DNA from: Escherichia coli
GTDB lineage: Bacteria; Pseudomonadota; Gammaproteobacteria; Enterobacterales; Enterobacteriaceae
Assembly: GCF_003991155.1 (NCBI RefSeq)
Contig: NZ_CP031293.1
DNA: 64,000 nucleotides
Strand: one strand, 5' to 3'
This document shows, one piece after another, positions 7,440-34,924 of the stretch. Positions within the stretch are counted from its first letter, which is position 1. Each line of letters starts with the position of its first letter. Under the pieces are notes generated by a model. The model was not told the origin of the DNA, made no database searches, and was given only the letters and a program-made list of their open reading frames with translations. The translations under genes and the position numbers were made by a program.

Positions 7440-7753
7440 TTGGGGCCATTTTGACTCATAGAGGAAAGCATCGCGCACAAACTTTTTCAGTTTATTTGTT
7501 GGCTTAATGTTCTATAGTTATCTTTATTTGCAGTTTTTTATATTGCATGAGGTGGTTTTTGGAGAGAAGAATGAGGAAGTTGCGTCGAGCTACAGAAACG
7601 TTAGCTTTACATATAGCGGAGGTGATGTGAAATTAATTTACAAGAGAAATAATTTACATATCAAACAGTTAGATGATTTTTGTCGTTTTTTAATATTTTT
7701 ATGCTTGAGAAAAAATACGTAACTTATTTATGATATAGACAGTTTGGCCCCAA
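7440..7753. promoter_or_regulatory. fimS: fimS invertible phase-variation switch (314 bp) flanked by 9-bp inverted repeats TTGGGGCCA (7440-7448) and TGGCCCCAA (7745-7753); contains the fimA promoter
   Basis: Exact inverted repeats 314 bp apart between fimE and fimA; sigma70-like TTGAGA (7705-7710) and TATGAT (7729-7734) lie at the fimE-proximal end on the + strand. Confidence 0.85.
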
Positions 7754-7800
7754 TTGTCTTGTATTTATTTGTTTTTTAACTTTATTATCAATAAGTTAAA

Positions 7801-14684: not shown

Positions 14685-16418
14685 ATGGAAATCATATTAC
14701 CAAAAAACACCTTATATGACAGAGAGCAAAATGTCTTTTTTGAAAAGGTTACGGCCTTAATTGGCGAAAATGGTGCTGGTAAGTCCTCGATTTTACAATC
14801 CGTATTTATTAACTGTTTAACAAAAAAATATCTACCAGAAACAAAGGTTGTTTGTTTTTCTTCTGGACAAAATGAGAAATACTCAACGTACTTCTCTGAT
14901 TATCTTTCTCATGAAAGGCAAGCAAATAGAGGTCTTAACTTAGATTGTTGTTATTACGATAAATCATGGTCAAAGTTACTAATATTCATATCCACAATTT
15001 GTAAATCAAATGGTCTTGTTAGAAATTTTTTATGTGAGAAAGGCTATATTGATGTATCAGATGATAAAAATGATGATATATCAAGCAAGCTTACATTGAC
15101 GGTCCGAGTAAATTCGGCTTACGTTAATCGAGTAAAAATGGCATTAGCACAAGAAGAACAAGGTATTGAAAATACTTTAAGGTATTCAGCTTATCATAGG
15201 ACTTTAGAAAGTTTCATTAATAATATTGTTAATGCTGATTATGATTTCGAGTCTCCACTTGAAGCTCAAGAGATCTTGCTAACTCATTCAAATTTTTTCA
15301 ATCCATCATTTGAGGAAGCAGAAGATTCCTTTTTTGATCCTATCATAACATTTTTCACTCAAGCAGCAGATAATGATTACTTTATAATAAAACCATCATT
15401 ACAGCTAGAGTTTAAAAATAATATCGAACTGAATGATATTAGTGATGGGGAATATCAAGTACTCTTTTTATACTCTCTGCTTGATATTTTTGATAGTCCT
15501 AATACTTTATTCTTATTAGATGAGATAGATTCCCATTTACATTACAAGAATATTGAGCTCTTATGGCATCGACTACATAGTATTAATGGTTATGCGATAA
15601 CAACCACCCATCTATTAGACTCAATTACAGCTACTGATAATGATTTTAAAAACTTAAAGATTGTTGATAAAGGAAAAATAAAAGAAGATGATAAAATAAA
15701 AACTATAATAGAACGTTTATCTGTCTTGACAAGAATATCAGACGTACAGTTCGAAGTGTGTCGTAAACTAGAAAACATAGTATTGATGGATGATTATAAT
15801 GATTGGACTATTTTTTATGCCTTAGCAAAGAAAAAAGGACTTGATGTATCAAAGTTAGATGGCCTCCATGCAATAAAACAGTCCTCTGGTTACGATAATT
15901 TAAATCAAGAGTTCGCAAAACCAAAAATAGAGTGGATTAATTCGCTTTTAAATGTAAATACTGATAAAAAAGTCAAAAGAATATTCATGATCTGCGACAA
16001 AGATGAGGCTCCAATTACCTATCAGAAAGATGGAGTTCAAGTCAATGGAAGTGAATATTCAAAACATATAGCGAAGTTAGAAAATAAAAACAAAAATAAA
16101 ATATATCTCCTTGCATGGAAAAGAAGAGAAATAAAAAACTACTTACTATCTTATACGGCATTGTCCCATCATGGATTTATCGAGCAAATAAACAATGGAG
16201 ATCTGCCAGCTAACAGTTATTTAAAAGAAAACGATCCTGGAGATAATTCAGCAATTAGCCGGCTTAACGTAAAACATTGCATCACAAAAATAATTGATTC
16301 TGATGGTATAGGATTAGATATATCAAAACTTTACTCATATATAGAACTTATACCACCTGCTGAGATCAGTGAAGATATAGTGAACATGTACAATTTTTTG
16401 GTGGAGAAATTAAAATGA
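14685..16418 (+). CDS. ABC-type (OLD/AAA_21-like) P-loop ATPase, 577 aa, with possible C-terminal TOPRIM/DUF4435-like nuclease region
   Basis: Walker A LIGENGAGKSS, signature-like ISDGEYQ, Walker B LFLLDEIDSHLH; C-terminal acidic motifs FMICDKDE and WKRREIKNYLL; very AT-rich; stop overlaps next gene start (ATGA at 16415-16418). Confidence 0.7.
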   Translation: MEIILPKNTLYDREQNVFFEKVTALIGENGAGKSSILQSVFINCLTKKYLPETKVVCFSSGQNEKYSTYFSDYLSHERQANRGLNLDCCYYDKSWSKLLIFISTICKSNGLVRNFLCEKGYIDVSDDKNDDISSKLTLTVRVNSAYVNRVKMALAQEEQGIENTLRYSAYHRTLESFINNIVNADYDFESPLEAQEILLTHSNFFNPSFEEAEDSFFDPIITFFTQAADNDYFIIKPSLQLEFKNNIELNDISDGEYQVLFLYSLLDIFDSPNTLFLLDEIDSHLHYKNIELLWHRLHSINGYAITTTHLLDSITATDNDFKNLKIVDKGKIKEDDKIKTIIERLSVLTRISDVQFEVCRKLENIVLMDDYNDWTIFYALAKKKGLDVSKLDGLHAIKQSSGYDNLNQEFAKPKIEWINSLLNVNTDKKVKRIFMICDKDEAPITYQKDGVQVNGSEYSKHIAKLENKNKNKIYLLAWKRREIKNYLLSYTALSHHGFIEQINNGDLPANSYLKENDPGDNSAISRLNVKHCITKIIDSDGIGLDISKLYSYIELIPPAEISEDIVNMYNFLVEKLK

Positions 16419-18322
16419 ACACCTCTTTATTTGAAGATCTACTTACACTAATCAAGAAAAAGAGTTCGATAAGGAATACAGAACAAGCAGTAGAGTTAAT
16501 TTCATTATTTATTTTTTTACATTATATAAAATTATATCTTTATGAAAATGATAAAAGATTTTCAGATATAAAAAACATATCAAGCAACAACATTAATGAA
16601 ATTAAATATTATTATCAGCAACTATATGAAAGTTTTATTTTCTCGATAGATATAAAAAATATAAACCACGACATGCTTGAAAAGCTCAGGAGTAAGATAG
16701 GTTTTTTAATTAATAACATCAATGACCATGAAATAATTAAATATATAGATTATTCTATTTCGCAGATACATTCACTTACAGAATTCTATCAATATGCAAA
16801 TTCTTATCAATCTTTAATTCTTAGGATGGTTAATGAATCGGGTCGTTCAGGTGAATATGTTACTCCATCTGCTTTAGTTCAGCTCATGGTTGAAATGTTA
16901 TCACCTACAGATGGCACATCAATCTACGACCCCGCATGTGGAACTGGGGGTTTATTAATAGAGTCAGCACGATATATTAAAGGCAACAGTTTAAACAAAA
17001 ACTTAAATTTAAATTATTCCCTTATTGGTAATGACACATCATCATTTGCCTGTCTAATCTCAATTGTTAACCTTTTAATCAATAAAGAATTTAATTTTGA
17101 AATAATACTAAAAGATAGCTTAGATATAAATTATAAGAATACAAAATATGACTTTATTTTAACTAACCCACCATTTGGGAAAAAGAGCGGTTGGGATAAT
17201 ATTCATATTGACACACATTATAAAGGACCTAATCTAGACTATTACTTCCTGGAGCATGTTATTGACTCTCTCGCTGTTAATGGCAAAGCAGCCATAATAT
17301 TACCAGAGCGTTTTTTATATGATGTGAGTAAAGAGTGCATCACTCTTAAAGATAAGATCTTCCAAAATTATAATTTAGATTGTATTTTATCTATACCGTC
17401 AGGTGCATTGCTTCCTTACACTGCAGTAAAATTATGTATTCTTTTTATAAGTAATCCTGGCCCAACAGATAGAATATTTTTCTACAATTTAAATAATGGT
17501 GAAAAATACTCACGTACAAATATTATAAAATTCGATGATTTTATAGATTTTTTAGAGTCAGCAAAAAATAGAACAATAACTGAACACTCCTGGATTATCA
17601 ATATTAGTGATACACCTTCATCTTATAACTTACTCTTAAAAGATAAAGAGCGAAACTCATATGAGTTTCTTAGTGATTCTATAGTTAACATTGAACAGAC
17701 AATACGTAATAATGAATTATTACTAACAGAGTTGTCTTTATTAAGAGAAAAAATAGCAATCTTAGAGTCAACAATAAAAAATCATTCGCATGAATATGAA
17801 TTTGAGAGACTTAAAGTTGGAAATATTGCAATAGTAAAATCCGGAAATTTATTACAAAAAAACAGGCTGTTACCCACTGGACCAATTCCTGTATACGGTG
17901 GAAATGGAGTTATTGGATATAACAATGAGGCAATGGTAAATGGTGAAAATATTATTATTGGTAAGGTCGGAGCTCTTTGCGGAAACGTTCGGTATGTTCA
18001 AGGTGATATTTGGGTGACAAATAACTCATTAATTATTAAGAATTATTTACCAAATAAAGTTTTAACACCCTACCTTGCAAAGTTATTATCTACTTTAAAC
18101 TTAAGAAAGCTCGCCGTTGGTACCGCTCAACAATATTTAACCACAACACAAATAAAAAATGTAGAAATTAGCATTCCACCTTTAACGACCCAGCATAAAT
18201 TAAATATGTGGCTTGATGAGTTAGATAATACCCTTGAACAATATAATAAGCTCATTGAAAAAATAATGAATGATAAGCGAGAACTTAAAGAGAATTTGTA
18301 TAAAGGTCTTTTAATAGAATAG
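16415..18322 (+). CDS. N6-adenine DNA methyltransferase (HsdM-like) fused to a single type I specificity (HsdS-like) target-recognition domain, 635 aa
   Basis: Motif I YDPACGTGGLL and motif IV LTNPPFGKK; C-terminal ~180 aa resemble an HsdS TRD plus conserved helix (...GKVGALCGNVRYVQGDIWVTNNSLIIK...); translationally coupled to the upstream ATPase. Confidence 0.75.
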   Translation: MNTSLFEDLLTLIKKKSSIRNTEQAVELISLFIFLHYIKLYLYENDKRFSDIKNISSNNINEIKYYYQQLYESFIFSIDIKNINHDMLEKLRSKIGFLINNINDHEIIKYIDYSISQIHSLTEFYQYANSYQSLILRMVNESGRSGEYVTPSALVQLMVEMLSPTDGTSIYDPACGTGGLLIESARYIKGNSLNKNLNLNYSLIGNDTSSFACLISIVNLLINKEFNFEIILKDSLDINYKNTKYDFILTNPPFGKKSGWDNIHIDTHYKGPNLDYYFLEHVIDSLAVNGKAAIILPERFLYDVSKECITLKDKIFQNYNLDCILSIPSGALLPYTAVKLCILFISNPGPTDRIFFYNLNNGEKYSRTNIIKFDDFIDFLESAKNRTITEHSWIINISDTPSSYNLLLKDKERNSYEFLSDSIVNIEQTIRNNELLLTELSLLREKIAILESTIKNHSHEYEFERLKVGNIAIVKSGNLLQKNRLLPTGPIPVYGGNGVIGYNNEAMVNGENIIIGKVGALCGNVRYVQGDIWVTNNSLIIKNYLPNKVLTPYLAKLLSTLNLRKLAVGTAQQYLTTTQIKNVEISIPPLTTQHKLNMWLDELDNTLEQYNKLIEKIMNDKRELKENLYKGLLIE

Positions 18323-18402: not shown

Positions 18403-21400
18403 TTAATAATGCTCCTCAATATACCCATACGCCTTCTGGAACAACTCTTTATCTTTCCCTAGTCCAAACTGGGCCAAGGTCAGTAAAAGCGCCTTTTGGA
18501 TTTCGCGCGGGCCACTGTTGGAATTTTGCCAGCCATCAAAGCGGGTAGCTTTCACAATTTTATCAATTTGCTCTACAACATCACCGATTAACTTAGGGGT
18601 AGTTTCCGGACGTGTTTCGAGGAAAAGCTTAGTCAACGCCTGTTTATTATCAGCTTCAGTTACTGGGCGCTCGCCCGTTTCGCGCTCGGCTTGAACGGTA
18701 TCTTTCGCTGCATCCAACAGGCCTTTCAACCAGTCAATGGCCTTGATAACACCAGCTTCATAGTCCTGACGCAGTTTTTCAAGGCGCTCGCCCAATGCCA
18801 CAAATTTAGGATCATGACTGCCGCGCAAACGTCCCATAAGATCAATCTCCAGGCGTTTGGCACGTTGTTCCTGCTCTTTAGCGGTCAGGGTAAAAATAGC
18901 GTGCTCGTCCATAACCAACTCGTCAATATCATCGCGAATACGATTGATATCAGTATGCTCATGGATCATCTTGATTGTTTCGGGGCCAAGGGCAGCCCAA
19001 ACAAGCGCACCTGTCTGCCCTACCGGACGCACCGATTCATAAATTTGCGCCAGCCATTTATAGTCCTGACGATAAGAGGTCAAAAAAGGATCTGGGTTGA
19101 TAGCTGACCATAACTTGGATAACACACCAAAGCTGGCAGCGAATTCATCGCGTTTCTCGTTGGTCGGCAGGCATTCCTGCGCGGCCATAATACCTTCAAA
19201 ACCAGCTATGGACCGATCCACACCAGGGAAGAAGGACAAACATTTATTCAGTTGTAACGGCAATAGCTCTTTAAATGCCTCAATTCCCTCTACAACTCCT
19301 TCAATTTCTTCAGGGTTATAGGCCAGAGCGGTACGCAGATTTTCGAAAACGCCGAGGTAGTCGATAATTAATCCCATGTCCTTGCGTACAGTATCGGTTT
19401 CGTACAACCGGTTGGTTCGGCACATGGCCTGAAGAAGAGTATGATCGCGTAGAGGCTTATCGAGGTACATGCAGTAGCAAATCGGGGCATCAAAACCCGT
19501 AAGCAGCTTGGCGGTTACGATAATAAGCTGTAATGGATGTTCAGGATCTTTAAAGCATTCAATCAGATCCTTTTGCACCTGTTCTTCGGCATCAATGTGC
19601 TGCCAGCGTTCAAAATCGACTTGTTTGACTGGCAGCTCCAACTCATCATGCCATTTAAGCCAATCCTTGTTGAGCTTGTCTTTTTTGCCACCCTCTTCAA
19701 CTTTAACCGGAGCCTGGTCAACGTTCATAACCACTTCAACCGCATCAAAACCAAGCTTTTCACCGAGCAAATAATACATCTGCACACAGGCTTCGCGATC
19801 GTATACCACAACCATGCCTTTCATCTTTTTCGGCATAACATGGTTGGTAAAATGCTCAGCAATATCATTACTCACCGCAGCCATACGCCTAGGGGATTTC
19901 AGCATGATTGCCAGCTTGCCTGCACGCCTGGACAATGCTGCTTTTTCTTCTTCATCCAGGTTGTTTTCGGTAGCCAGTTGCTCGAACTCTTCATTGATGG
20001 CATCACGATCCACTCGGAGTTCAGCCAGCCGAGGTTCGAACTTCACCGGGTTAGTTGCGCCATCCCGGATCGACTGCTTATAGCTATAGCGGCTCATATA
20101 GCGACCTGGATCTTCTTCGGCACCGAACAATTTGAACGTATTACGATCAATGCCAGAAATCGGAGTACCAGTCAGGCCATAGAAGTGGGCATTGGGCAAC
20201 GCCCAGCGCATTTTCTCGCCTAATCCCCCTTCCTGTGTACGGTGAGCTTCGTCAACCAACACAATGATATTGTCCCGGTTGTTCAGGCCATTAGGGTTGC
20301 TATCGTCAATTTCGATATCTTTAAATTTAAAGATGGTGGTGATTAAAATGCCACGGCTGTCTTGTTCTATGTATTCACCCAACTTTTTGCAGCTTTGCAC
20401 TTTAATCAGATTCTTAACGTCGGCTCCGCCAAAGGTCTCGTTAATTTGGCTGTCCAGATCTCGCCGGTCCACAACGATAAGTACCGTCGGGTTTTTTAAC
20501 GCATTATCGGCACGTAGCATTTTGGCGGCGTAAAGCATCAACAAGGATTTACCCGATCCCTGGAAATGCCAAATAAGACCTTTTTTTGGATAGCCTCTGC
20601 GAACACGCTCAACAATTTGTTTTGCAGCTTCAAATTGCGGATAACGCGGCAGGATTTTAACGCGTTTAGGTGGAGTATTTTTGCCCGTTTTGACGGTTGA
20701 AAATAATGCAAAAGATTCAAGTAACTGCAATAAGGTTTGTGGATTTAACAAACTCTCACAGCTGTTGAGTACCGATGCTAATCCCGGCAGAATTTCATCA
20801 CGAAGCTCAGTATTATGCCAGGGCCCCCAGTCTTTAACTCTGGCATTAATGGCACCATAGGCAAAGGTTTTTCCTTCGCTGGCAAAGCACAGCAAGTTAG
20901 GTACAAAGAAAGATTCAACATTTTTCCAGTAGTACTTTTTGCCACCCATGAAATCGGCAGCACCGTCTTGCCAGGTCACGCTGGGGCGTGTTGCGGTTTT
21001 AACTTCGCCCACTACTAGCGGTATGCCGTTCACATAAAGAACAATATCAAAATAGACTTCAGTGGCCGCGATATAGCGAACCTGCTGCGCCACCACAAAG
21101 TGGTTGTTCTCTATATTGTCAAAATCAATCAGATTGATGGTGATATGGTCGCCATTCTTACCAAAAGGCAAGGTTTTGTCGGCCATCAACCATTCCTGGA
21201 AGTTTTCATTGGCCTTTACCAAGCCGGTATGGCGGGCTTCTAAAACCACTCCTCGCAGTTTGTAAATGACCTCATCGGCATAGTCAGGCTGTCTGCCGAT
21301 ATCAGGGTTTAACGAACAAAGCGCGTCTTTTAGCCACTCATCAACGAAGATATCCTGCGCTTGTTTAGGCAGGTTTTCACCGTGGCAGTAAGTCCACTTG

Positions 21401-21465
21401 ACTCCGCTTAAACCTTTTAAACGGTCGATAATTCCATTTTCTGTGACGGTTTGTTCGTTAAACAA
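18403..21465 (-). CDS. hsdR: type I restriction enzyme R subunit (HsdR), 1020 aa
   Basis: N-terminal PD-(D/E)xK-like DIVLYVNGIPLVVGEVK; helicase motif I HFQGSGKS and DEAH box IVLVDEAHRTQ; directly follows hsdS. Confidence 0.9.
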   Translation of the reverse strand: MFNEQTVTENGIIDRLKGLSGVKWTYCHGENLPKQAQDIFVDEWLKDALCSLNPDIGRQPDYADEVIYKLRGVVLEARHTGLVKANENFQEWLMADKTLPFGKNGDHITINLIDFDNIENNHFVVAQQVRYIAATEVYFDIVLYVNGIPLVVGEVKTATRPSVTWQDGAADFMGGKKYYWKNVESFFVPNLLCFASEGKTFAYGAINARVKDWGPWHNTELRDEILPGLASVLNSCESLLNPQTLLQLLESFALFSTVKTGKNTPPKRVKILPRYPQFEAAKQIVERVRRGYPKKGLIWHFQGSGKSLLMLYAAKMLRADNALKNPTVLIVVDRRDLDSQINETFGGADVKNLIKVQSCKKLGEYIEQDSRGILITTIFKFKDIEIDDSNPNGLNNRDNIIVLVDEAHRTQEGGLGEKMRWALPNAHFYGLTGTPISGIDRNTFKLFGAEEDPGRYMSRYSYKQSIRDGATNPVKFEPRLAELRVDRDAINEEFEQLATENNLDEEEKAALSRRAGKLAIMLKSPRRMAAVSNDIAEHFTNHVMPKKMKGMVVVYDREACVQMYYLLGEKLGFDAVEVVMNVDQAPVKVEEGGKKDKLNKDWLKWHDELELPVKQVDFERWQHIDAEEQVQKDLIECFKDPEHPLQLIIVTAKLLTGFDAPICYCMYLDKPLRDHTLLQAMCRTNRLYETDTVRKDMGLIIDYLGVFENLRTALAYNPEEIEGVVEGIEAFKELLPLQLNKCLSFFPGVDRSIAGFEGIMAAQECLPTNEKRDEFAASFGVLSKLWSAINPDPFLTSYRQDYKWLAQIYESVRPVGQTGALVWAALGPETIKMIHEHTDINRIRDDIDELVMDEHAIFTLTAKEQEQRAKRLEIDLMGRLRGSHDPKFVALGERLEKLRQDYEAGVIKAIDWLKGLLDAAKDTVQAERETGERPVTEADNKQALTKLFLETRPETTPKLIGDVVEQIDKIVKATRFDGWQNSNSGPREIQKALLLTLAQFGLGKDKELFQKAYGYIEEHY

Positions 21466-21466
21466 T

Positions 21467-22633
21467 TTATTGTCCCCTCAGAAGAATATTCAAATAACTG
21501 GACTTGAGTTTACGAATTTTTTGAAGCCTTGATTTAGCTTCTCTATAACTGTTTTCGGCTAAATGTAATATATCCTTATATTTCCCAAGCTCTCTTGATG
21601 GTGGTATAACCATCTTCTGAGAATGTACATCGGCATCATTAACAGCCGGGAAACTTGTACCAACTGCCAAATTGGTTAATGAATAAGTGAATTGCTTCGA
21701 CAAAGTGAAATAATAAATAAAATCGGACAAATCATTTTTTGCCCTTAGAACAGTAAAACCTGTTGATGCTATTGAATCATTCAATATTTCAGACACATAA
21801 AACGTAGCTCTATGATTGGGTCTAACAGTGCTAACAACAATATCTTTTTCCTTAAGAATACGCCGAGCTCGGCTGGGGGCTTCAGCGAAATGGTATTCTT
21901 TAGGAGTATCGACAAAACCAGGAAAAGTCACTGAAGATATATCTATATACCTAATCAGCTTATTTTTATTGGCATCATTACTTAACAAGTCAAAATTAAT
22001 ATTTGATACATCCTTCAATCTAACTTTGTTATATCCAAATGGCAGTTTTTCTTTTCGATCAAATGTAGTCAACCGATCAATTAATCTTTGAAATAAATTT
22101 AATGCAGACCTTTCAGTCTCATTTGCACAATGTAATACTTGTTCGATTTTTTTTAAAGAATTTAAAAAATCAACTTGCAGATCCATTTCAGGAATAATAA
22201 ATTCCTGCTGACTTAAAACTTTCCATTTTATCGTTGGAGACAATGACCCCTCCGAAATTGCTACTGCACGATTCATGAAAGTATCAGACTGCATAATAAA
22301 GGGTAAAAACTCAGGTATTACAGTATTTGAATTTGCCTCCAGAACCATGGCATGAGCCGAACAGATACAATCCCAATCTGCTACCGCGACTTTACGTTGA
22401 TAAGCACGACGCTTACCAAAAATAATCTGGCCTTTTTTCACTAAAAGCTTCTGCCCTTCAACGTCACTGGGTGTACCATGACGTTTGATTTTCAGGCTGT
22501 CAGGGTCTAAATGCTCCAAACCGACATAAATTTCAAGGTCTGTCTCGCTCGGTTCCACTCGTTTAGAGATATGTTTAGCGATATCGCCAAACTTCACCAT
22601 TTGCCAGCCTTCAGGTAATTGCTGTTCTGTCAT
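21467..22633 (-). CDS. hsdS: type I restriction-modification specificity subunit (HsdS), two TRDs
   Basis: 388-aa protein with two variable regions separated by conserved spacer; second TRD coding region markedly AT-rich; abuts hsdM and hsdR. Confidence 0.85.
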   Translation of the reverse strand: MTEQQLPEGWQMVKFGDIAKHISKRVEPSETDLEIYVGLEHLDPDSLKIKRHGTPSDVEGQKLLVKKGQIIFGKRRAYQRKVAVADWDCICSAHAMVLEANSNTVIPEFLPFIMQSDTFMNRAVAISEGSLSPTIKWKVLSQQEFIIPEMDLQVDFLNSLKKIEQVLHCANETERSALNLFQRLIDRLTTFDRKEKLPFGYNKVRLKDVSNINFDLLSNDANKNKLIRYIDISSVTFPGFVDTPKEYHFAEAPSRARRILKEKDIVVSTVRPNHRATFYVSEILNDSIASTGFTVLRAKNDLSDFIYYFTLSKQFTYSLTNLAVGTSFPAVNDADVHSQKMVIPPSRELGKYKDILHLAENSYREAKSRLQKIRKLKSSYLNILLRGQ

Positions 22634-24133
22634 TTACTGCTCCACCTTGCTTTCAACGTTATATCCAAGCTCTGCAAGGCTCTGGAATAATTTATTAGTT
22701 TGCTTTTTCAACTGAGTACGGCTTACTTTCCACGCTTCAATCGCATGTTCAATATTATGTACTTCAGCGTTGTTTTGTGCTTGCACATACAGTGGAATTG
22801 AAAGGTTATAAAGGTTTTCTTTAATAGCTTCAATATTCACTAAAGAGGTTATATCGTTTTTTTTCTCCGGATTAAAATAAGCCTCGCATAATACCTCCAA
22901 ATCCTCATCGGATAAGCGACTATGAGCGCGTTCACGGGTAACATGCTCAACCCCGTTGATAAATAACACTTTATTTTTGCGTTCGGCAGGTTTATTGCAA
23001 TTAAGCACCACCACACAAGATTCCATCGGCGAGTTATAAAACAGATTTGGTCCCAAACCAATCACCGCTTCAATAATGTCCGATTCAATCACCTGTTTAC
23101 GAATGGCCTGCTCAGAATCACGGAACAGCACACCGTGTGGCCAGAGCATAGCAGCACGACCGGTATCGGGTTTTAAACTTTTAATTATATGGGTATAAAA
23201 AGCATAATCAGCGCAGCCCTGCGGTGGGACACCATAAAGATTTCGACCATACGGATCAGCAGCAAACTTGTCACGATTCCATTTTTTAATGGAGTACGGT
23301 GGGTTGGCAAAAATCACATCAAACTGCTTGAGCCGATCGTTTTCAATAAACTTTGGCTCAGCCAAAGTATCACCACGCAGCACATCAAACTCTTCAATAT
23401 CGTGCAGGAACATATTCATACGGGCGATTGCGGATGTCAGCAGGTTCACTTCCTGACCATAAAGGTGCACAGAGCGCCACTCTTCCCCTCTAGCACGCAG
23501 ATCCATCACTGCATTTAGCAACATCCCACCTGTGCCACACGTTGGATCATAGGCGGTTTCACCCGGTTTTAAGCCCATAATGCGCGTCATTAAATGCACG
23601 ACTGTTCGGTTGGTGTAGAACTCTGCTGCCGTATGACCGGAATCATCAGCGAACTTTTTAATCAGGTATTCGTAGGCCTCACCAAGATCATCCTGAGCGA
23701 CAGATTTAATGCCTAGCGGAATTTGACTGAAATGTTCAATCAGATCAGCCAGCAGATGATCGGGCAGGCGCTCTTTATTGGTCCACTGCGCATCACCGAA
23801 GACGCCATGTAAACGCGGATTATTGGCTTCAATTAGTCGAAGCGCATTCTGGATCGCTTCACCAATGTTTTTACTGGTATTGCGTACCTTTTCCCAACTG
23901 GCTTCAGAGGGAATGTTGAAACGGTGAAACATCGGCATGGCGGCATATTCAGCATCACCTTCATGGAGTTCCAGCGCTTCGTTATATTCTTCCAGATAGA
24001 CATCTGACAGGCGTTTGTAAAACAGCAACGGGAAGATATACTGCTTGTAGTCTGATGCGTCAATTTGGCCACGAAGAAATTCGGCGGCTCCCCAGAGCAG
24101 CTCTTCCAGCTTTTTATTACTCATAGTACTCAT
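22634..24133 (-). CDS. hsdM: type I N6-adenine methyltransferase subunit, paralogue B (499 aa)
   Basis: Motif I YDPTCGTGGMLL, motif IV FANPPYSIKKW; start overlaps stop of upstream hsdM paralogue (24130-24133). Confidence 0.85.
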   Translation of the reverse strand: MSTMSNKKLEELLWGAAEFLRGQIDASDYKQYIFPLLFYKRLSDVYLEEYNEALELHEGDAEYAAMPMFHRFNIPSEASWEKVRNTSKNIGEAIQNALRLIEANNPRLHGVFGDAQWTNKERLPDHLLADLIEHFSQIPLGIKSVAQDDLGEAYEYLIKKFADDSGHTAAEFYTNRTVVHLMTRIMGLKPGETAYDPTCGTGGMLLNAVMDLRARGEEWRSVHLYGQEVNLLTSAIARMNMFLHDIEEFDVLRGDTLAEPKFIENDRLKQFDVIFANPPYSIKKWNRDKFAADPYGRNLYGVPPQGCADYAFYTHIIKSLKPDTGRAAMLWPHGVLFRDSEQAIRKQVIESDIIEAVIGLGPNLFYNSPMESCVVVLNCNKPAERKNKVLFINGVEHVTRERAHSRLSDEDLEVLCEAYFNPEKKNDITSLVNIEAIKENLYNLSIPLYVQAQNNAEVHNIEHAIEAWKVSRTQLKKQTNKLFQSLAELGYNVESKVEQ

Positions 24134-25629
24134 ACCTCGAAACCTTCTTTGATAAGCAGGGCCTCCAGCTCCTCTTCTGCTTTTTCCAGCTCAGCCAGCT
24201 TCCGTTGAAAATCTTTGAGCGCCTCTTCCACAGTGATGGTTTCTTCTTCGAGTGGCTTTTGCACATAACGAGCAATATTTAGATTGAAGTCATTTTCTTC
24301 AATCTCCTTCAGAGAAACCCAGCGTGCAACGCCTTCGATTTCTTTTGCATCTGGCCCTTGTTGCGCCTGGTCATGATAGATTTGGTATATTTCATCGGCC
24401 TGCTTGTTGGACAGCGTATTCTGCGCACGTCCCTTGGTATAGATTTCTTCAGCATTGATGATCAATACATGATCTTTATGCGCGGCCGGACGTGATTTAC
24501 GCAGCACCAAAATACACGCAGGAATCCCAGTCCCATAGAACAGGTTGGAAGCAACACCAATAATCGCCACAATGCGATTCTCTTGCAGTAATTTGGTTCG
24601 AATTGCCCCCTCTGCGCCGCCACGAAACAGCACACCATGAGGTAATACGACTGCCATACGTCCATTGTCGTTAAGTGAAGCAAACATATGCTGCACCCAG
24701 GCAAAATCACCATTTGTTTTAGGCGCCAGGCCATATTGCTTACGGCCATAGGGATCGTTCGACCACAGATCGTATCCCCATTCTTTTAAGCTAAATGGTG
24801 GGTTGGCAACAACGCAGTCAAAGGTTTCTAAACGATCGCTTTTTAAAAATTTAGGTTCGCGTAAAGTATCCCCTCGGACAATATCGAAATCTTCCTGTCC
24901 ATGCAGGAACAGATTCATACGCGCAATAGCTTCCGTCGTTAAGTTCTTTTCCTGACCCTTGATTTTTAGTAAACGCGGATCACCACCATTTTCTTTTACA
25001 TGGTGGATGGTCTCAAGCAGCATACCACCGGTACCACAGGCGGGATCGTAGACACTCTCACCGGCTTTTGGATCAAGAATGTTAACCATCAAACGAACGA
25101 TAGTTCGTGGGGTATAGAACTCACCGGCTTTCTTATTGGCTTTGTCTGCAAAGCGTTTGATCAGATACTCGTATGCGCGCCCCATATCATCGTCACGGAC
25201 ACTAGAAACGCCAAGGTTCACCTTATTGAAGTGATTGAGTAACGTAGCCAGTAACTCATCAGAAAGGCGTTCTTTATTGGTCCAGCTGGCATCGCCAAAA
25301 ATGCCATGCAGTTTAGGGTTTGCCAGTTCTATACCACGGAAGGACTCTTTTAAAGCCTGACCGATGTCCTTGGTCTCAGCGAAAACATCGCGCCAGTGGC
25401 AATTTTCAGGTATCTGAATACGGTGAAACATCTTGCCCTTGGCAAGCTCTGCATCCCCAATGCTCTCCATCGCATCGGCAAATTCTTCGTCATACACGTC
25501 ACAAATGCGCTTGAAGAACAGGATGGGGAAAATGTACGTTTTGTAATCTGACGCATCAATGGGCCCTGTAATAATATGGGCTGCATGCCATAGATGGGCC
25601 TCGAGATCTTTTAGGTTAATCAGTGTCAT
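24130..25629 (-). CDS. hsdM: type I N6-adenine methyltransferase subunit, paralogue A (500 aa)
   Basis: ORF 24130..25731 trimmed to MTLINLKDLEAHLW; motif I YDPACGTGGMLL, motif IV VANPPFSLKEW; homologous over full length to paralogue B. Confidence 0.85.
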   Translation of the reverse strand: MTLINLKDLEAHLWHAAHIITGPIDASDYKTYIFPILFFKRICDVYDEEFADAMESIGDAELAKGKMFHRIQIPENCHWRDVFAETKDIGQALKESFRGIELANPKLHGIFGDASWTNKERLSDELLATLLNHFNKVNLGVSSVRDDDMGRAYEYLIKRFADKANKKAGEFYTPRTIVRLMVNILDPKAGESVYDPACGTGGMLLETIHHVKENGGDPRLLKIKGQEKNLTTEAIARMNLFLHGQEDFDIVRGDTLREPKFLKSDRLETFDCVVANPPFSLKEWGYDLWSNDPYGRKQYGLAPKTNGDFAWVQHMFASLNDNGRMAVVLPHGVLFRGGAEGAIRTKLLQENRIVAIIGVASNLFYGTGIPACILVLRKSRPAAHKDHVLIINAEEIYTKGRAQNTLSNKQADEIYQIYHDQAQQGPDAKEIEGVARWVSLKEIEENDFNLNIARYVQKPLEEETITVEEALKDFQRKLAELEKAEEELEALLIKEGFEV

Positions 25630-25872: not shown

Positions 25873-26910
25873 TTGGCGCAAAATGGCGGCATTTCCTCAT
25901 TTCTCCATCGGAGCATCTTACGCGCTATAACCACTCTCGTTTTTTCCTATTCCCATGCAGATGAAGCACTACGCAATGAACTTGAGAAGCATCTCTCCCC
26001 GCTGAAGCGAACCGGGAAGATCACAACATGGCACGATCGCCGCATCGTTCCTGGTCAGGAGTTCGAACGTCAGATCGACCACTATTTTTCGCAAGCAGAT
26101 ATCATCCTGATCCTGATCAGCAGTGACTTTATTGCTTCTGATTACTGCTATCAGGTAGAGATGAAAAACGCACTGGAACGGCATAACCGGGGCGAGGCAG
26201 TGGTCATTCCGGTAATTTTAAGAGACTGTGCATGGCATCAGTTAGAATTCGGCAGCATTATGGCGGCGACTATCGACGGTAAACCCATCACTAAGTTTGC
26301 CACCCACGATGAAGGCTACGTTCAGGTCGTCGAGGCTGTCTCGCGTGCCATTGCCCGGATGGAAGCCAAAAAACCACAGCAAACCATACATATCCCTTCA
26401 CCGGCTCCGGCGAATCCGATCTTTCAGGGAGTAGATTCCGTTTTTACACCGCGTTCAAGCAACCTTACTCTACCCAAGAAATTTACCGATCTGGATAAAG
26501 ATCGTGCCAGACGTGAGGGCTTTGAATATGTTGCCCGCTATTTTGAAAATTCGTTAGATGAACTCAAAAAGCGCCACCCCGGATTAGATATCGATTTTAA
26601 TCGGCTTGATACAGATTCATTCACCTGTGCCGTGTATATCAATGGCAGTAAGGTCGGCCAATGTGGCATCTGGCGAGGCAATCAACATCATGGAATGGGA
26701 GATATCTGTTATAGCCAGGATAATGTTGTTCGAAACAGTATTAACGAAACTCTAAGCCTTGCTGATAACGGCCAGACTCTTGGTTTTCGTGCTCTGATGG
26801 GAGGCTTCAGTCGAGGAACTTCACGAGACGAACTATTGACCAATGAAGGTATGTCGGAACATCTCTGGGAAATGTTCTTCGGGCTAATCAAGCAAAGAAT
26901 GTCCCGATAA
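25873..26910 (+). CDS. TIR-domain protein with uncharacterised ~180-aa C-terminal domain
   Basis: TIR-like N-terminus (VFSYSHADE..., WHDRRIVPGQEF, ADIILILISSDFIASDYCYQVEM with a Glu at the expected catalytic position); only in-frame start is TTG at 25873 and no clear Shine-Dalgarno, so the N-terminus is uncertain. Confidence 0.65.
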   Translation: MAQNGGISSFLHRSILRAITTLVFSYSHADEALRNELEKHLSPLKRTGKITTWHDRRIVPGQEFERQIDHYFSQADIILILISSDFIASDYCYQVEMKNALERHNRGEAVVIPVILRDCAWHQLEFGSIMAATIDGKPITKFATHDEGYVQVVEAVSRAIARMEAKKPQQTIHIPSPAPANPIFQGVDSVFTPRSSNLTLPKKFTDLDKDRARREGFEYVARYFENSLDELKKRHPGLDIDFNRLDTDSFTCAVYINGSKVGQCGIWRGNQHHGMGDICYSQDNVVRNSINETLSLADNGQTLGFRALMGGFSRGTSRDELLTNEGMSEHLWEMFFGLIKQRMSR

Positions 26911-26925
26911 TTTGCCATATCACAG

Positions 26926-26947
26926 TCGGGCATACTGCCCGATTTTT
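26926..26947 (+). terminator. rho-independent terminator downstream of the TIR gene
   Basis: Stem TCGGGCA/TGCCCGA with 3-nt loop followed by TTTTT. Confidence 0.65.
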
Positions 26948-27094
26948 GTGCTGTCATTATTGGCAATATCTCAATAGGCGTTGAGAAATGGTGCAATTTA
27001 ATCTTGCCAGAGCGCTGTTACTTGGGGACGAAATTAATGGGCTCCTGCTGTAGTTACAGCAACGCCTGTAAATACAAAAATAGGCGTTGCAAAT

Positions 27095-28150
27095 TCATGC
27101 TGGCAAATACGTTTTCTTAAGCGGCACCAATAGCTTAGTCTCTATATCCACTTGCTCATAGTTTTCAACTAACGCGCGTACCAAATCATCCAGCGTCCAT
27201 AGCGTCAACGGGATTGTAGAACGATCGGCCTCATAACGCGCATCCTTGCTGAATCCGCCGGTACTGACATACAGCCCGCGATCGTCTTTATGGCGGCCAC
27301 CGATAAAGCTACGGATTTGCTGGCTGCTCATCTGTTCCCGCCGGTGCTTCACCTCAACAATAATGCGCGGATTTTCAAACCCAAATCCGTCAGGCGAAGC
27401 AATGATGTCTTTCCCACGGTCAGCACCCGCAGGCGATACCTGAGTTTTATATCCCATGCTGCGTAACACGCCAGCGACCAGATTCTGCATCTCATCCCAG
27501 TCGAGACGGTTGATACGATCCTTGATGCCTTCAAAAGCGATCATTTCCATGTCGCGCAGAGGATTAGAAACGACCTCATCCTCTTCACCTGAAACAGGTA
27601 CTTCCGGCACGATATCTGAGACAGGCTTATTGCCCTGCACTAATTCATTCACAGCAAAATCAGGCACCTGAAAAACTGTCAGCGTTGAACCAAGGGTGTT
27701 TCTAGTTGCATCACTCAGACTATCGCGCTTAATCTCTTCCGCATTCCACTTCACTTTACGGGCGATGCCCATGCCATCTTCAAGCCACTCGGCATGAAAC
27801 TCAAAATCTGACGCTATTTTCCCTATTAAATAGGTCCGATTAGAAGGTGAATAAGTGATAGCCCAGTCGCCTTTCTGCATTTCATTCACAAAGCGCCAGA
27901 CCTGAGAAGCTCCAGAACGAACTGTGCCTGGCTTAGTCTGTGGCTCAAGCTCCTGATACCGGGTAAACAACTGCTCTCTTGAGCATCCAGGTTTCACATA
28001 GGGAGCGAGCTGCGACCAACCAATTGCAACAACCTGTTTGTCTCTGAAGTCGTCGTACAATTTTCCGCCATCACCGCGGATCATCCACATCTTAGTCGCC
28101 ACAATAATTCCTTCTGAAAATACTTCATCGTTATACCGGGACGTGATCAT
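27095..28150 (-). CDS. Mrr-family (PD-(D/E)xK) restriction endonuclease with N-terminal PUA/EVE-like putative modified-base reader; probable type IV enzyme
   Basis: C-terminal domain alignable with E. coli Mrr catalytic region (DIIASPDGFG...IIVEVKHRR...LYVSTGGFS); start set at ATG 28150 preceded by AAGGTGG; N-terminal RFVNEMQKGDWAITYS resembles EVE-domain core. Confidence 0.7.
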   Translation of the reverse strand: MITSRYNDEVFSEGIIVATKMWMIRGDGGKLYDDFRDKQVVAIGWSQLAPYVKPGCSREQLFTRYQELEPQTKPGTVRSGASQVWRFVNEMQKGDWAITYSPSNRTYLIGKIASDFEFHAEWLEDGMGIARKVKWNAEEIKRDSLSDATRNTLGSTLTVFQVPDFAVNELVQGNKPVSDIVPEVPVSGEEDEVVSNPLRDMEMIAFEGIKDRINRLDWDEMQNLVAGVLRSMGYKTQVSPAGADRGKDIIASPDGFGFENPRIIVEVKHRREQMSSQQIRSFIGGRHKDDRGLYVSTGGFSKDARYEADRSTIPLTLWTLDDLVRALVENYEQVDIETKLLVPLKKTYLPA

Positions 28151-28212
28151 TCCATTCAGCCACCTTATCCAGGGGAAAAACACCGATAAGATGGCTAATC
28201 AAAATGTCTGTT

Positions 28213-31200
28213 CTAAACCTGACGCCTATCAAGACTATTATAAATAGCCTCAATCTCACCTTTCAGGTTATCACCAGAGTAAACCATCGATGTATCGTAT
28301 CGTTCATATCGCGCTTCCCGTGTCGCACTAAACCAGTTGAACGATCCCACGCATAGCAAACCATCATCACCAATAACAATTTTGCTATGAACACGGTTTA
28401 CCAGCTTTGTAGCAATACCCAGCGCATTCAGTTTCTCCAGCGCCGCTTTAAGGTTCTGCTGCTTCTCTTTTCGCTTCTCAAAATCTTTATGTTCAGTGTT
28501 GTAGCTTCTGTCAGTGACTATCGTGACGTTAATACCACGTGAACACGCCGCAATCATGGAATCAAGAAAACCCGTTTGCTCCAGCTTTTGCCAGGTCAGC
28601 CATGGAGAAACTATCGTGATGTGTTTATCGGTATTTTCAAACGTCTGATTCAGGAAGTTATCATGCTGCTCCACACCATGAAGTGTGTAGATTTTGGTCT
28701 CGGAAGTTTTTAAATCCTTACGCTCTTTATAATCAAAAGAGAGCGCATTCTTCTCGAACTCAAAGAGATATTTTGCCAGCAATCCTCGCGGAGATGAGGG
28801 AGCCTGGATCTCAAACAGATCCATATCGCCGAAGACCAGGAAGCTATCCTTCGCACGGGAGACTGCAACATTCAGCATGCTGTTATCGCTATCAATAAAC
28901 CCGCCGTCTTCATGTTTTGAATAGACTGGCGAGAATATAACAATCGCTCTTTCCGCTCCCTGAAGAGAGTGCACGGTGCCCACTGTGAGCGACTTTTCAT
29001 TCGCGCCCGTACTGATACCTTGTTTACCCAGCGCCTGTTTTATAGTGGATACCTGCGCGCTAAAAGGCGTCACGATACCGACAACTTCATGAAGCGATTT
29101 GCCGTAATGCGCTTCAATATTTTGCTGGTTCTCTGCCAACCAGGCCGCTATCGTTTCAGCCTCAAGCAAATTATATCTACTTCCACTACTTGCCTGCTCT
29201 CCTTTACCATCAATATGGAGATAACCCATTGCGGGCATTAAATTGCTCTCTTCACGCCCTCTTTTAGGCAACAACTTACCGTGATAGCAGAGCGTATTAC
29301 AGTATCCAATAATATTATCGAAGCACCGGCGGTGTTCATATAGGTACATACCACGAGCCAGTTCGGGATCATATTGATAGCGCGAAGCAAACTGCGCTAT
29401 TTTCATAACGCTGCCAGATGCGGCACTTTTACCAAGGTCTGCGATTGCCGTATATTTCTCGGTAATCTCTTCTTGCGTACTGCCAGACAGAATTTTTTCC
29501 GCCAGCATGTTACCGACATCAATCGCGGGAGCAATACTCCATATTGGCGGGATCTGCTCCGTATCGCCAATCACTAATGCCTTCTTAGCTAATGCAAACG
29601 AGGCAGCAGCCACTTCAGGAAGCACCTGCCCGGCTTCATCGACAATGAGTAAATCGGCAAAATCATACAAATAACTTTTCTCGAATTTACGTTGTCCTTT
29701 GTGCTCACTTATCTGCATATTGCCGGGCAGCATATAGCATGTCATCACCACACATGGAGTGAGTTTCATTCGACGTTGCCAACGGGCGGTTACCCCTTTA
29801 GCGCCTTGTTTCTTCTTCTCTTCCTGCAGATCATCAATTCTGGCCATATCCATCAGCCAACGACCTTCCCAGTAGTGAGTCGTCAGTAAAAATGCAGGGA
29901 AGCGAATCTGCGTATCAGCCAGTTCATCGGCCTGTGAGAAGCTCAGTTCCTCGTCGCCCTCATACCCTAAATCAAATGCCAGCCTCTGCCACTCCTGAAC
30001 CGCCTGCTGTTCTTTAAGAACGATTTCATGGGCGGAGTCAATCTGCTGCCGGTATGTTGTTTGCTCGCGCTCAGCGGAATTGAGCAGCCCATCAATATTA
30101 CGTTCGATAGTTTCAGGATCAGACCACTGATTTCCTGCAATCAGCGCGCCTAATTTATCTTCGAGAAACAGCTGTATTTGGTACTGTCGCTTATTGCGAA
30201 CCGCCGGGAGCCAGGAAAATAATGAATAGATCAGTGATTCACCGGCGCGATATTTTTTCCATTCCGTTTTAGCACTCTTCAGTAGAGTGACTTTTTGTTC
30301 TTGTCCGGAAAGTAATTTATTTAAATTATCGAGATATTGCTCAATATCATTAGCAATAAGCTCACGCGCAGCCCGAATCTGGCTTAACATTTGCCATGTT
30401 GCGTTCAGTCTTATCAGTTGCTCGGATTTTGCTGCCAACTGACCATGCAGGAGTTCAATGATCTTTTCAGGGGATGAACACTCTTTTTCAGGAAAGGCTG
30501 CCTTAGCCTTCTCCAGATAAAACAGCAGTGCATCCTCTACATACTCTTTTGACTCAACCTGGGTGAAGAAATCTTCAGTTTGATATTTTTTGGCTGCCTC
30601 AGCTTTACGAGTGCTTGAGGGAAAATAAGCGCCGAAGCTTTTCAGCTCTGGCAACCATCGTCCGGCCATCGCACCTGAACCTTGCGAAAAGTCTTTCCCG
30701 AATGCCTCAATAATGTTCGTTACAGCCTGGTTATTCGTTGAAGTCGCGATAATAACCGGAGGCTCAGATTTTTCGAGAGCTGCTCTGGCCCACTGCGTGG
30801 CGATGATAGAAAGCACCAGCGTGGTTTTTCCGGTTCCCGGAGGTCCATTAACAGCAAGGATATCGCCATGTCTTGCATCCAGAAAATGGCTTAAGGCATC
30901 GCGCTGAGCCTTTGCCAGCGGAAACTTATCTCCGGAGTGTCCAAGCCTGTCGCTGAATTTTGCTCCTGGGGCCAGCAAAGACTCTGCAGCATGAACCTCT
31001 CGCGAGGCGAAGCGATTGAAGAGCGGCACATCCTTCTTGCAAACAAGCAGGTGATCATAAAGAGAAAGGATATGGAAACTGGCACCGCCAGATTGCGCCG
31101 TTTTAACAATATAACCGTGCTCAGCGAGTACATATTGCTCAGGATTTTTAATCCAGTCGCCGGCAACATTCTTCAGCAGCCTCTCTGAATCATCCAGATA

Positions 31201-31728
31201 TTGACGCCACTCCTGCTGCAAGGCTGCATATCGTGCTTCCCGTTCTTCATCCGTTTCGGCAGTCTTATCAATGCTGTCATCAAAGTTGATAGAGAACGAG
31301 GTATGGATTGTCTTGTATTTGTCATACTGCCCAATATCACCAATCGAAAATGCTCCTTTTGGCAAAGGTTCAAGCAGGTCTCTGGGAATGGAGGTCGCTG
31401 GCGTCGGATATAAAAAACCCTCACGGCTTAGCAAGGCTGGCGTCACTAGCGGGGTAACAATATCAGGTGCGCCTGCGGAACGGTCCTTACCATGCTGCAG
31501 TAACCGAAAATAAACTTTTGGGCGCAAGACGACATCGACCGTTTCGACATCGTCTTTTTCTCCCTCAAAAAATTTACTGACAATCGCTTCGTCAAGACGT
31601 CCCGCCGCTATCCCATGCCAGTGAGTGAAATTTTTGGCGTCTTTCCGTTCAAAACTGCCCTTTCCTGACTCAGCATCTGCAAGCGAGTTGCGCCAGTATG
31701 AGGCAAACCCTAAAGCATTTTCATCCAT
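28213..31728 (-). CDS. SF1 (Upf1/DNA2-like) helicase fused to C-terminal PLD-family nuclease, 1171 aa; architecture resembles type II Mokosh
   Basis: Walker [13 protein letters not shown], Walker [10 protein letters not shown], helicase motifs [16 protein letters not shown] and [12 protein letters not shown]-terminal HKD motif [20 protein letters not shown]. Confidence 0.75.
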
Positions 31729-32053
31729 TACCAGTCCTATGACTCAATGAAATCCATTGATTTATCGAATATAAAATCACCGTATGGATAACTATTGTCC
31801 ACGTTGAAAGGCTGGCTGCAATGTTTTGTTCACGCTTCGATACAAATACTCAGGTTATACGGAGTTCAGAAAACGACCATATCATGTTGCATGGCACATA
31901 AAAGCTTTATAACCGAAGCAGCAAAGGATTACCGGCTGCGCAGCACGCCCCGAAAGCCCGTGAGCCCTGCTGGACAGCGTTCAGTGCAATATTGGAGCCT
32001 GTAAGTTCAGAAAATATCGCTGTCGAAGATGGTTCTGTATGTAGGCGCGCCAG

Positions 32054-32431
32054 CTATCGTTTTGTCCGATGCTTGCGAATAAAAGCATTCAAAATGTCGC
32101 CTTCACCATGCATGACAGAAAAAGAATATTCACATTCTTTCTTTATCAAGATTCCACATAATTCCTGGTGCAAATCAACATTAACTCCCTTTCCTTTCTG
32201 CGCTTTCTTCACACCGAGCTCACATGAACTGATTAATTCAACGTTACAGGGTTTCTTCAAACAATTCACACCATCAATTAAGCCATGGAGAATGCATCTA
32301 TTTGCGGTCGTATCACTGTAGGAGAAAGTCAGATATTTTATTTTTCCTTCGCATTCCAGCACAATTTCCGCCGAACCTTCACGTGTTGCAGCATCACAAC
32401 CTCCTGTTGAATATATTTTTACCATCTTCAT
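32054..32431 (-). CDS. small RNase HI-like protein (125 aa) lacking the catalytic acidic residues
   Basis: Alignable by eye with E. coli RNase HI (VKIYSTGGC vs VEIFTDGSC; TTANR vs TTNNR; NVDLHQEL vs NVDLWQRL) but D10, E48, D70 positions are T, I, S/C; good SD (AAGGGG) before ATG. Confidence 0.6.
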   Translation of the reverse strand: MKMVKIYSTGGCDAATREGSAEIVLECEGKIKYLTFSYSDTTANRCILHGLIDGVNCLKKPCNVELISSCELGVKKAQKGKGVNVDLHQELCGILIKKECEYSFSVMHGEGDILNAFIRKHRTKR

Positions 32432-32499
32432 TTTGTAACTTTCCCCTTACCAAACGAATCGCGACATCCTATATCAAAGGCATTCTCGTCAAAACTTAA

Positions 32500-33621: not shown

Positions 33622-33706
33622 TGGTGCCGAAGGCCGGACTCGAACCGGCACGTATTTCTACGGTTGATTTTGAATCAACTGCGTCTACCGATTTCGCCAC
33701 TTCGGC
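33622..33706 (-). tRNA. leuX: tRNA-Leu (CAA anticodon), 85 nt
   Basis: Reverse complement folds as cloverleaf: acceptor GCCGAAG.../...CTTCGGCACCA, anticodon loop with CAA, long variable arm; adjacent to ahr as in K-12. Confidence 0.95.
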
Positions 33707-33901
33707 ACTGAAGAGGTATGCGGAAAACGTTGTGGATTATACCTGTCGCACGCCACCATGCAAGCGCCAGCTTGCTCGCACCTCGCTAAGTGCTGAAATT
33801 TTCAGCATTGCATACAGCGATGTGTAACCTTTGTCACACTCCAGGCACCCCGCCCTGCCATGCTCTACACTTCCCAGACAACACCCGAGAAGGACCAAAA
33901 A

Positions 33902-34921: not shown

Positions 34922-34924
34922 AAA

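Follow-up and report, generated by a model that had tools for sequence, protein, structure and literature searches.

PacII from Pseudomonas alcaligenes is the prototype of the m4C/m6A two-methyltransferase Type I restriction-modification (R-M) systems and has the target CCC-N5-RTTGY (Morgan et al. 2016, PMC5100572). The subgroup is defined by the gene order M1(NPPF)-M2(NPPY)-S-R, in which m6A is made by M1 and m4C by M2, the two methyltransferases being 45-55% identical to each other; the specificity subunit recognises the cytosine half-site through a first target-recognition domain (TRD1) that is strongly conserved between systems, and the adenine half-site through a second (TRD2) that is diverse (PMC5100572). 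Sen483I from Salmonella enterica SL483 (CCC-N5-RTAG) and Pme5I (CCC-N6-TGCG) are other characterised members of the CCC type (PMC5100572, Table 1). The structures of the PacII complex (7VRU and 7VS4, of which 7VRU is the M1M2S methyltransferase) identify the residues of TRD1 that contact CCC and those that form the M2 interface, and they place the C-terminal tail of M1 against the connector helices of S (PMC9613975). The E. coli operon described below closely resembles PacII in its methyltransferases and in TRD1 of its specificity subunit, and is unrelated to it in sequence over the remainder of that subunit.

Organisation and class of the operon

The operon sits in a defence island next to the tRNA-Leu gene leuX on the E. 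coli chromosome; in the 64,000-nucleotide stretch of DNA that was analysed (the window), tRNA-Leu(CAA) occupies positions 33622-33706. In strain 2016C-3878 the hsdS locus is flanked by nanC/nanM/nanS-fimB on one side and by an integrase on the other. A gene for a methyltransferase-TRD fusion (16415-18322) adjoins the operon. The four genes lie on the minus strand in the order M1-M2-S-R, all abutting or overlapping, with hsdS in third place:

24130..25629, minus strand: hsdM1, putative m6A methyltransferase subunit; 499 aa, NPPF motif IV at aa 276, Pfam HsdM_N and N6_Mtase
22634..24133, minus strand: hsdM2, putative m4C methyltransferase subunit; 499 aa (496 aa if the ATG at 24124 is the start)
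21467..22633, minus strand: hsdS, specificity subunit; 388 aa, Pfam Methylase_S
18403..21465, minus strand: hsdR, restriction/translocase subunit; 1020 aa, Pfam HSDR_N, SWI2_SNF2, ResIII and T1R_D3-like, NCBIfam hsdR at 478 bits

The hsdM1 and hsdM2 genes overlap by 4 nt, and hsdR starts one base past the hsdS stop with a TTG codon, where all relatives compared have ATG; this start might lower the expression of R. All four open reading frames are full length with complete domain sets, so that the M1-M2-S-R system is intact, and it is probably active. A 533-aa form of M1 with a TTG start was considered and dropped, the 499-aa form aligning from 1 to 499 with PacII M1 and agreeing with RefSeq.

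Each methyltransferase scores about twice as high against its own PacII counterpart as against the other subunit (M1, 980 bits to chain 7vru_A and 475 bits to chain B; M2, 1012 bits to chain 7vru_B and 456 bits to chain A), which supports a PacII-like assignment. M1 and M2 are paralogues of 45.8% identity. M2 carries NPPY as motif IV at aa 277, the active-site loop NSPME at aa 367 (375 in PDB numbering, which adds 8) and R21 as the equivalent of PacII R29; the corresponding loop of M1 is GTGIP at aa 366, one substitution away from the G-T-A-I-P of PacII. The window operon thus has every sequence-level feature by which the PacII-like subgroup is recognised, and by all sequence criteria it is a PacII-like two-methyltransferase m4C/m6A Type I R-M system, in which M1 and M2 would carry out the m6A and m4C chemistry. 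This corrects any annotation of the locus as an ordinary Type I system whose hsdM has been duplicated. Membership of Type IC, the EcoR124I family, was considered and rejected: the M subunits reach only 178-197 bits against EcoR124II M (7bst), compared with about 1000 bits against PacII, a search of the window HsdS against solved structures returned no EcoR124 match at E<=1e-3, and only the M-S-R gene order is held in common with EcoR124.

The domain boundaries of HsdS were set from the published boundaries of S.PacII together with an alignment to S.PacII:

22199..22633, minus strand: TRD1, constant cytosine-half-site domain, aa 1-145; predicted CCC reader
22055..22198, minus strand: CR1, central connector helix, aa 146-193; varies between alleles, the most AT-rich part
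21593..22054, minus strand: TRD2, variable domain predicted for the adenine half-site, aa 194-347; Pfam Methylase_S at aa 200-356
21470..21592, minus strand: CR2, C-terminal connector helix, aa 348-388; varies between alleles

HsdS aa 1-193 matches S.PacII (7vru_C) at E=2.5e-89, and TRD1 is about 90% identical to that of S.PacII (14 differences in 145 aa), retaining the residues that contact the bases (R75, R76, H94) and the backbone (Y78, Q79, K81) as well as those of the M2 interface (N121, E128, K136). TRD1 is therefore predicted to bind CCC and to offer its central C to M2 for N4-methylation. The likeness to PacII, which lies in gene order, in the scores of M1 and M2 and in TRD1, does not extend to the rest of the specificity subunit: CR1, TRD2 and CR2 of S.PacII are unrelated in sequence to the window hsdS, the alignment being weak past aa 145 and stopping at aa 193, and the closest solved relative of the window TRD2 is TRD1 of the S subunit of T. 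tengcongensis (3okg/5ybb, E~7e-22). The two systems also differ in host, E. coli against Pseudomonas alcaligenes, and in the TTG start of the window hsdR.

Since CR1, TRD2 and CR2 are unlike those of S.PacII, the adenine half-site of the window system, and perhaps its spacer, are expected to differ from those of PacII. The predicted target is C(m4C)C-N5/6 followed by an adenine half-site, and a literature search found no published E. coli motif for this hsdS allele. Among E. coli lineages the expected target would take the form CCC-N(5-6)-X with only the second half varying, a restriction explained by TRD1 being a constrained cytosine-recognising domain. Sen483I and Pme5I, likewise enterobacterial or gammaproteobacterial two-methyltransferase systems, present, when compared by their published targets, the same picture as the E. 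coli alleles described here, with the CCC half in common and the m6A half and spacer varying. Such an expectation helps in reading E. coli methylomes, where m4C signal may otherwise lack an explanation.

Alleles on one E. coli backbone

TRD1 is present in 54 of 5426 E. coli genomes (blastn), and at least four cassette types, the cassette being everything past TRD1, occur on one E. coli backbone among these 54 carriers. The full hsdS allele of the window is found in 41 of them, strains 2016C-3878, AR Bank #0349 and CREC-544 included (39 complete genomes at 100% identity, two others at 99.8-99.9%), and the other 13 match only from hsdS nt 1 to nt 414-448, at 86-92%. Those 13 genomes have this M1-M2-S-R locus as well, in most cases beside the same neighbours. 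In two sibling E. coli loci, L002 and L004, the DNA of M1, M2 and hsdR matches that of the window at 95-100% almost throughout, except for the 3' end of M2 in L002, where identity goes down to 76-87%; the last ~100 aa of M2 are themselves mosaic between alleles. At the protein level M1 of these two loci is 99.6-99.8% identical to that of the window, M2 96-98% and R 99.5-99.8%, and over the sibling alleles as a whole hsdR is 98.4-99.8% identical in protein.

From about nt 415 onwards the hsdS genes of L002 and L004 cannot be aligned with that of the window, the 42-51% identity being noise, until the hsdR start codon is reached. At the protein level TRD1 of the sibling E. coli alleles is 91-95% identical, and past aa 145 the S proteins of different alleles are 18-23% identical. 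Against L004 the differing codons number 2 of 81 in nt 1-243 and 25 of 57 in nt 244-414, 20 of the 25 being synonymous; orthologues from other genera differ from the window at 31-32 of the latter 57 codons, a divergence to which that of L004 is comparable. The tract that distinguishes the window from its siblings is accordingly delimited as follows:

21466..22391, minus strand: tract differing from sibling E. coli alleles; a divergent TRD1 tail (hsdS nt ~244-414), then a non-homologous cassette (nt ~415-1167)

Its left boundary is sharp and lies inside TRD1, at hsdS nt ~243 (window ~22391), and its right boundary is the hsdS stop and hsdR start (21466), homology returning at hsdR nt 2. The exchanged unit is the TRD1 tail, a helix, TRD2 and a second helix, not TRD2 alone, and the central spacer is not the crossover site. 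The first-pass annotation of this DNA had described hsdS as a domain-swap mosaic on the strength of base composition; the comparison of sibling alleles supports a mosaic, but composition is not what proves it and the boundaries had been drawn in the wrong places. The accompanying claim, that half of the recognition sequence had been changed, likewise gains support from the comparison, with the amendment that the unit takes both helices along and that spacer length may change too.

A protein search with aa 150-388 returned S proteins of 388 aa with 60-66% identity over the whole cassette, carried by Xenorhabdus sp., Aestuariirhabdus sp. and uncultured sources, and full-length 388-aa homologues with the same pair of TRDs occur in Xenorhabdus and other bacteria at 70-76% identity. 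Both of the orthologue loci that were examined are M1-M2-S-R operons with gene lengths identical to those of the window, although their operon backbone is just ~80% identical to it in DNA; in protein they are 91-94% identical to the window over TRD1, 51-62% over CR1, 66-69% over TRD2 and 47-70% over CR2. The pairing of the two TRDs is old and widespread in the family, and the combination is not newly built in E. coli: bacteria of other genera have orthologues with the same pairing, so the E. coli allele is not a fresh assembly of unrelated parts. A match of both TRDs to a single known HsdS had been named beforehand as a finding that would tell against a mosaic, and the 388-aa homologues are such a match, if a weak one at 70-76%; the mosaicism seen among the E. 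coli alleles stands nevertheless. As to direction and source, we infer that a tract from an unsampled family member more likely replaced the tract of the E. coli backbone, or that the reverse happened in the sibling alleles. A plasmid source was sought by tblastn in PLSDB, where the best identities were 34% for the cassette and 43% for TRD1 and no donor was found. The TRD of the adjacent methyltransferase-TRD fusion was rejected as a donor, with 27% identity over 74 aa (E=0.63). Remoter relatives of TRD2 (37-47% identity) are found in S subunits without a PacII-like TRD1, at the first or at the second TRD position; in 45 of 120 matches the domain is N-terminal.

It is proposed that the locus is a PacII-like system in which TRD1 is kept constant and the CR1-TRD2-CR2 cassette is swapped by homologous recombination, a reading that we hold to be very probably right. 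Everything past TRD1 (CR1, TRD2 and CR2) would be replaceable. The conserved TRD1 would provide the left homology arm, with the crossover near hsdS nt 243, and the conserved 5' end of hsdR would provide the right arm, with the junction at 21466. Each exchange should then supply another m6A half-site and perhaps another spacer length, with the CCC half retained. The proposal bears on predicting where DNA transfer is hindered between lineages whose cassettes differ.

Base composition of hsdS

The earlier reading had rested on an AT-rich second TRD at 21700-22100, set against a first TRD and a conserved spacer that were less AT-rich. A compositional contrast within hsdS is indeed present: GC is 0.427 and GC3 0.385 in TRD1 (nt 1-429), and the values for all of hsdS past TRD1 are 0.328 and 0.241 (Fisher p=8e-4; p=4e-3 at third codon positions). 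It is not confined to TRD2, however, the individual values of GC and GC3 being 0.273 and 0.140 in CR1, 0.344 and 0.263 in TRD2, and 0.333 and 0.279 in CR2. The spacer therefore contradicts its description, having the lowest GC of any part of hsdS and lacking conservation between alleles. The interval 21700-22100 does lie inside hsdS and has a GC of 0.319, but it spans aa 179-311, that is the end of the central helix and most of TRD2, and the low-GC tract is longer, beginning inside TRD1 (nt 299, window 22335) and ending with the stop codon at 21467. Uniform composition, which had been put forward as the result that would speak against a swap, was not what the GC check along hsdS revealed: a single change point is best placed at nt 299, and its likelihood is reached in only 12 of 1000 codon shuffles. 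This point and the identity breakpoint at nt ~243 agree just approximately.

The low GC of the cassette recurs wherever the locus was compared. Cassette GC is 0.328 in the window, 0.335 in L002, 0.377 in both L004 and L005, 0.378 in L006 and 0.363 in L007, and the M and R genes range from 0.45 to 0.51 across loci, which puts the cassette 8-14 GC points under its own operon in all six loci. The contrast extends to L006, whose M and R genes have a GC3 of 0.54-0.62 (M2 and R ~0.62) and whose cassette has a GC3 of 0.32, and the AT-rich cassettes include the orthologous ones of two loci outside E. coli. Since all alleles examined have an AT-rich cassette, low GC is not evidence of a recent swap in this strain; AT-richness is a standing trait of the variable part of hsdS across the family and does not mark the date of a recent exchange. 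Low GC by itself would not prove a swap, and TRD swaps are poorly dated by base composition alone. The AT-richness of the cassette likely reflects either a history different from that of the M and R genes or faster, AT-biased evolution.

The last of these possibilities can be extended into an explanation that dispenses with exchange as the source of the low GC, in which AT-richness is unrelated to any swap and is simply a standing property of a fast-evolving, weakly constrained part of hsdS. Its causes would be AT-biased mutation under relaxed or diversifying selection, or selection of rare codons for low expression of S, with the GC of TRD1 held higher by strong purifying selection; it is compatible with cassette exchange having taken place. 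We consider it possible, though on balance we doubt it. The deficit of 8-14 points common to the six loci, L006 included, speaks for it, and so do the strongly differing rates along the gene that appear in the orthologues (91-94% identity over TRD1 against 47-70% over CR1, TRD2 and CR2) and the drop in GC3, which begins within TRD1 already. It leaves unexplained, however, why non-homologous cassettes stand on a protein backbone that is 96-99.8% identical, and why the proportion of differing codons jumps abruptly from 2 of 81 to 25 of 57 inside TRD1. The deficit is moreover mostly synonymous, which resembles a separate history rather than local drift.

This last point comes from a recoding test, in which codons for the amino acids of the cassette were chosen anew at the frequencies found in M1, M2 and R. 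The expected GC is 0.425, against 0.328 observed, and the expected GC3 is 0.458, against 0.241 observed, so that about 4 points of the deficit are due to amino-acid composition and about 10 to synonymous codon choice. The same test largely refutes the view that the low GC is a by-product of a coiled-coil and TRD sequence rich in Lys, Asn, Ile and Phe. Such a bias is present, in that the FYMINK fraction is 0.327 in the cassette and 0.266 in TRD1 and the recoded cassette falls below the recoded TRD1 (GC 0.425 against 0.466), yet of the roughly 14 points that the cassette lies below its operon it covers only about 4, and as an explanation it is very improbable. An internal promoter for hsdR as the cause of the AT-richness is also unsupported: a consensus scan of hsdS gave no promoter-like site on the minus strand, and the total of 18 sites is not above the 14.2±3.6 of shuffled sequences. 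Chance fluctuation is scarcely credible even for a gene of just 1167 nt and with 6% of the 735-nt windows across the 64 kb at a GC of 0.326 or less (mostly in neighbouring genes of ~30% GC), given the Fisher and codon-shuffle values above, the absence from hsdR, M1 and M2 of any 735-nt window below a GC of 0.411 (mean 0.465, sd 0.014) and the repetition of the pattern in five other loci.

Probable specificity exchange, compared with other Type I systems

Hybrid hsdS genes of the classical kind are represented in type IA by StySQ and StySJ, which derive from StySB and StySP, and in type IC by EcoR124I, EcoDXXI and EcoprrI. In the classical families crossovers occur in a central region that is conserved, and each family has constant connector regions. 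The window hsdS is like these genes in that one TRD is kept and the other replaced, which would change half of a bipartite target. It is unlike them in that TRD2 moves together with the connector helices and the crossovers map to TRD1 and to the hsdS/hsdR boundary, and it does not possess the conserved central and C-terminal regions which by the classical criterion are the sites of recombination. Swapping of one TRD is textbook Type I biology, and the pattern of a constant TRD1 and a variable TRD2 was noted previously by Morgan et al. (PMC5100572); what is added for the subgroup is small and consists of the breakpoints in TRD1 and at the hsdR start and of the non-conserved connector helices. 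The case is one of ordinary specificity shuffling in a known but rare type of system and would not surprise an R-M specialist.

Reshuffling of TRDs within the cell is a further way in which hsdS genes vary. Phase-variable hsdS systems are common in other bacteria, among them SpnD39III of pneumococcus and the hsdS inversions of Mycoplasma and Bacteroides, and the modularity of TRDs yields alternative specificities there as it would here. A local shufflon, with silent hsdS' copies and inverted repeats through which a recombinase would reshuffle the TRDs, is an extremely improbable account of this locus, even with a tyrosine integrase gene ~11 kb from hsdS: tblastn over the whole 64-kb window found no second copy of TRD1 or of the cassette, a search over 14-27 kb found no inverted or direct repeats involving hsdS save one chance-like 18-nt pair at 89%, and the allele is the same in 39 genomes, with the two more at 99.8-99.9%. 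The window therefore differs from SpnD39III-type shufflons in having no silent copies, inverted repeats or dedicated invertase, its variation being between strains and not within a cell.

The exchange of a CR1-TRD2-CR2 cassette by homologous recombination, which we favour for the E. coli alleles, could be taken further, with the unit of exchange throughout the family being a self-contained helix-TRD2-helix cassette whose source is a low-GC pool that circulates separately. We regard this extension as rather unlikely. If it were true, the nearly invariant m4C TRD1 and the 5' end of hsdR would be fixed homology arms, and a single exchange would change the adenine half-site and the spacer length at once; the four-helix bundle, to which S contributes its connector helices and M1 and M2 their C-terminal tails, would have to accept essentially unrelated connectors. 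If the extension were general, the concept of 'conserved regions' that is applied to Type I families would not be applicable to the two-methyltransferase subgroup. Within E. coli, the C-terminal tail of M1 is 100% identical between alleles whose CR1 and CR2 are ~20% identical.

Mosaicism at the 3' end of hsdM2

The mosaic structure of the two-methyltransferase M1M2SR operon is not confined to its specificity gene; the C-terminal ~100 amino acids of M2 are mosaic as well, like hsdS. The corresponding segment, in which GC falls to 0.35-0.375, is as follows.

22634-22999, minus strand: mosaic 3' end of hsdM2, with identity to the sibling alleles differing by locus

Over these last ~100 residues M2 is 83-84% identical to its counterparts at the sibling E. 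coli loci L002 and L005 and 96% identical to that of a third, L004, while the remainder of M2 has 95-100% DNA identity to the sibling loci. The M2 tail and the S cassette (the exchanged CR1-TRD2-CR2 part of hsdS) do not strictly co-vary, since L004 combines a near-identical M2 tail with a different cassette.

Start codon of hsdR and the S gene of L003

At the other end of hsdS, around positions 21465-21469, the hsdS stop codon is separated by a single base from a TTG start codon for hsdR (TAA-A-TTG). The hsdR start is ATG in all of the sibling E. coli alleles and in two orthologous loci from outside the species, and this ATG lies six bases past the hsdS stop in L002 but abuts that stop codon at the other four of the five compared loci. 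The TTG-for-ATG difference coincides exactly with the right-hand recombination junction, and the TTG start might reduce HsdR expression.

The L003 locus is that of three Korean clinical E. coli genomes. Its S gene (7001-8121) appears to be disrupted there, because the annotation splits it into two CDS (7001-7660 and 7678-8121) and its single-frame translation contains stops.

Neighbouring genes and the tRNA-Leu site

The operon is flanked by the following features.

14685-18322, plus strand: two overlapping genes, GC about 30%, convergent with hsdR
Within 25873-33279: ThsB-like TIR protein (508 bits)
27095-28183: PDC-S02 / Mrr-cat endonuclease
28213-31728: MkoC-like helicase-PLD protein, 1171 aa (1684 bits)
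32500-33279: HNH endonuclease
33622-33706, minus strand: tRNA-Leu(CAA)
33622-35057: region of the tRNA and an annotated site-specific integrase, the latter starting at about 33786 on the plus strand

The first gene of the overlapping pair encodes an AAA ATPase of 577 aa, for which the matches (AriA, AbiLi, PtuA and MADS3-like) are weak, and the second a 635-aa fusion of an N6-adenine methyltransferase and a single TRD (Methylase_S, residues 462-617). Neither protein has an identified nuclease domain, and the pair falls below every curated family threshold. It also adjoins the operon in L002, L004 and L005 and is missing from L003, where IS110 and IS3 elements take its place.

Further defence genes occupy 25873-33279, between the operon and tRNA-Leu; no ThsA was identified near the ThsB-like TIR gene. 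The integrase of the window sits 5' of tRNA-Leu(CAA) rather than within the island at the tRNA 3' end. An integrase follows the tRNA 3' end in L003 and L005, with an HTH gene and M1 directly after it.

Another low-GC stretch, at 52500-54400 (GC 0.32 at 53-54 kb), bears no relation to the hsdS finding and covers the following ORF.

52734-54386, minus strand: 550-aa ORF
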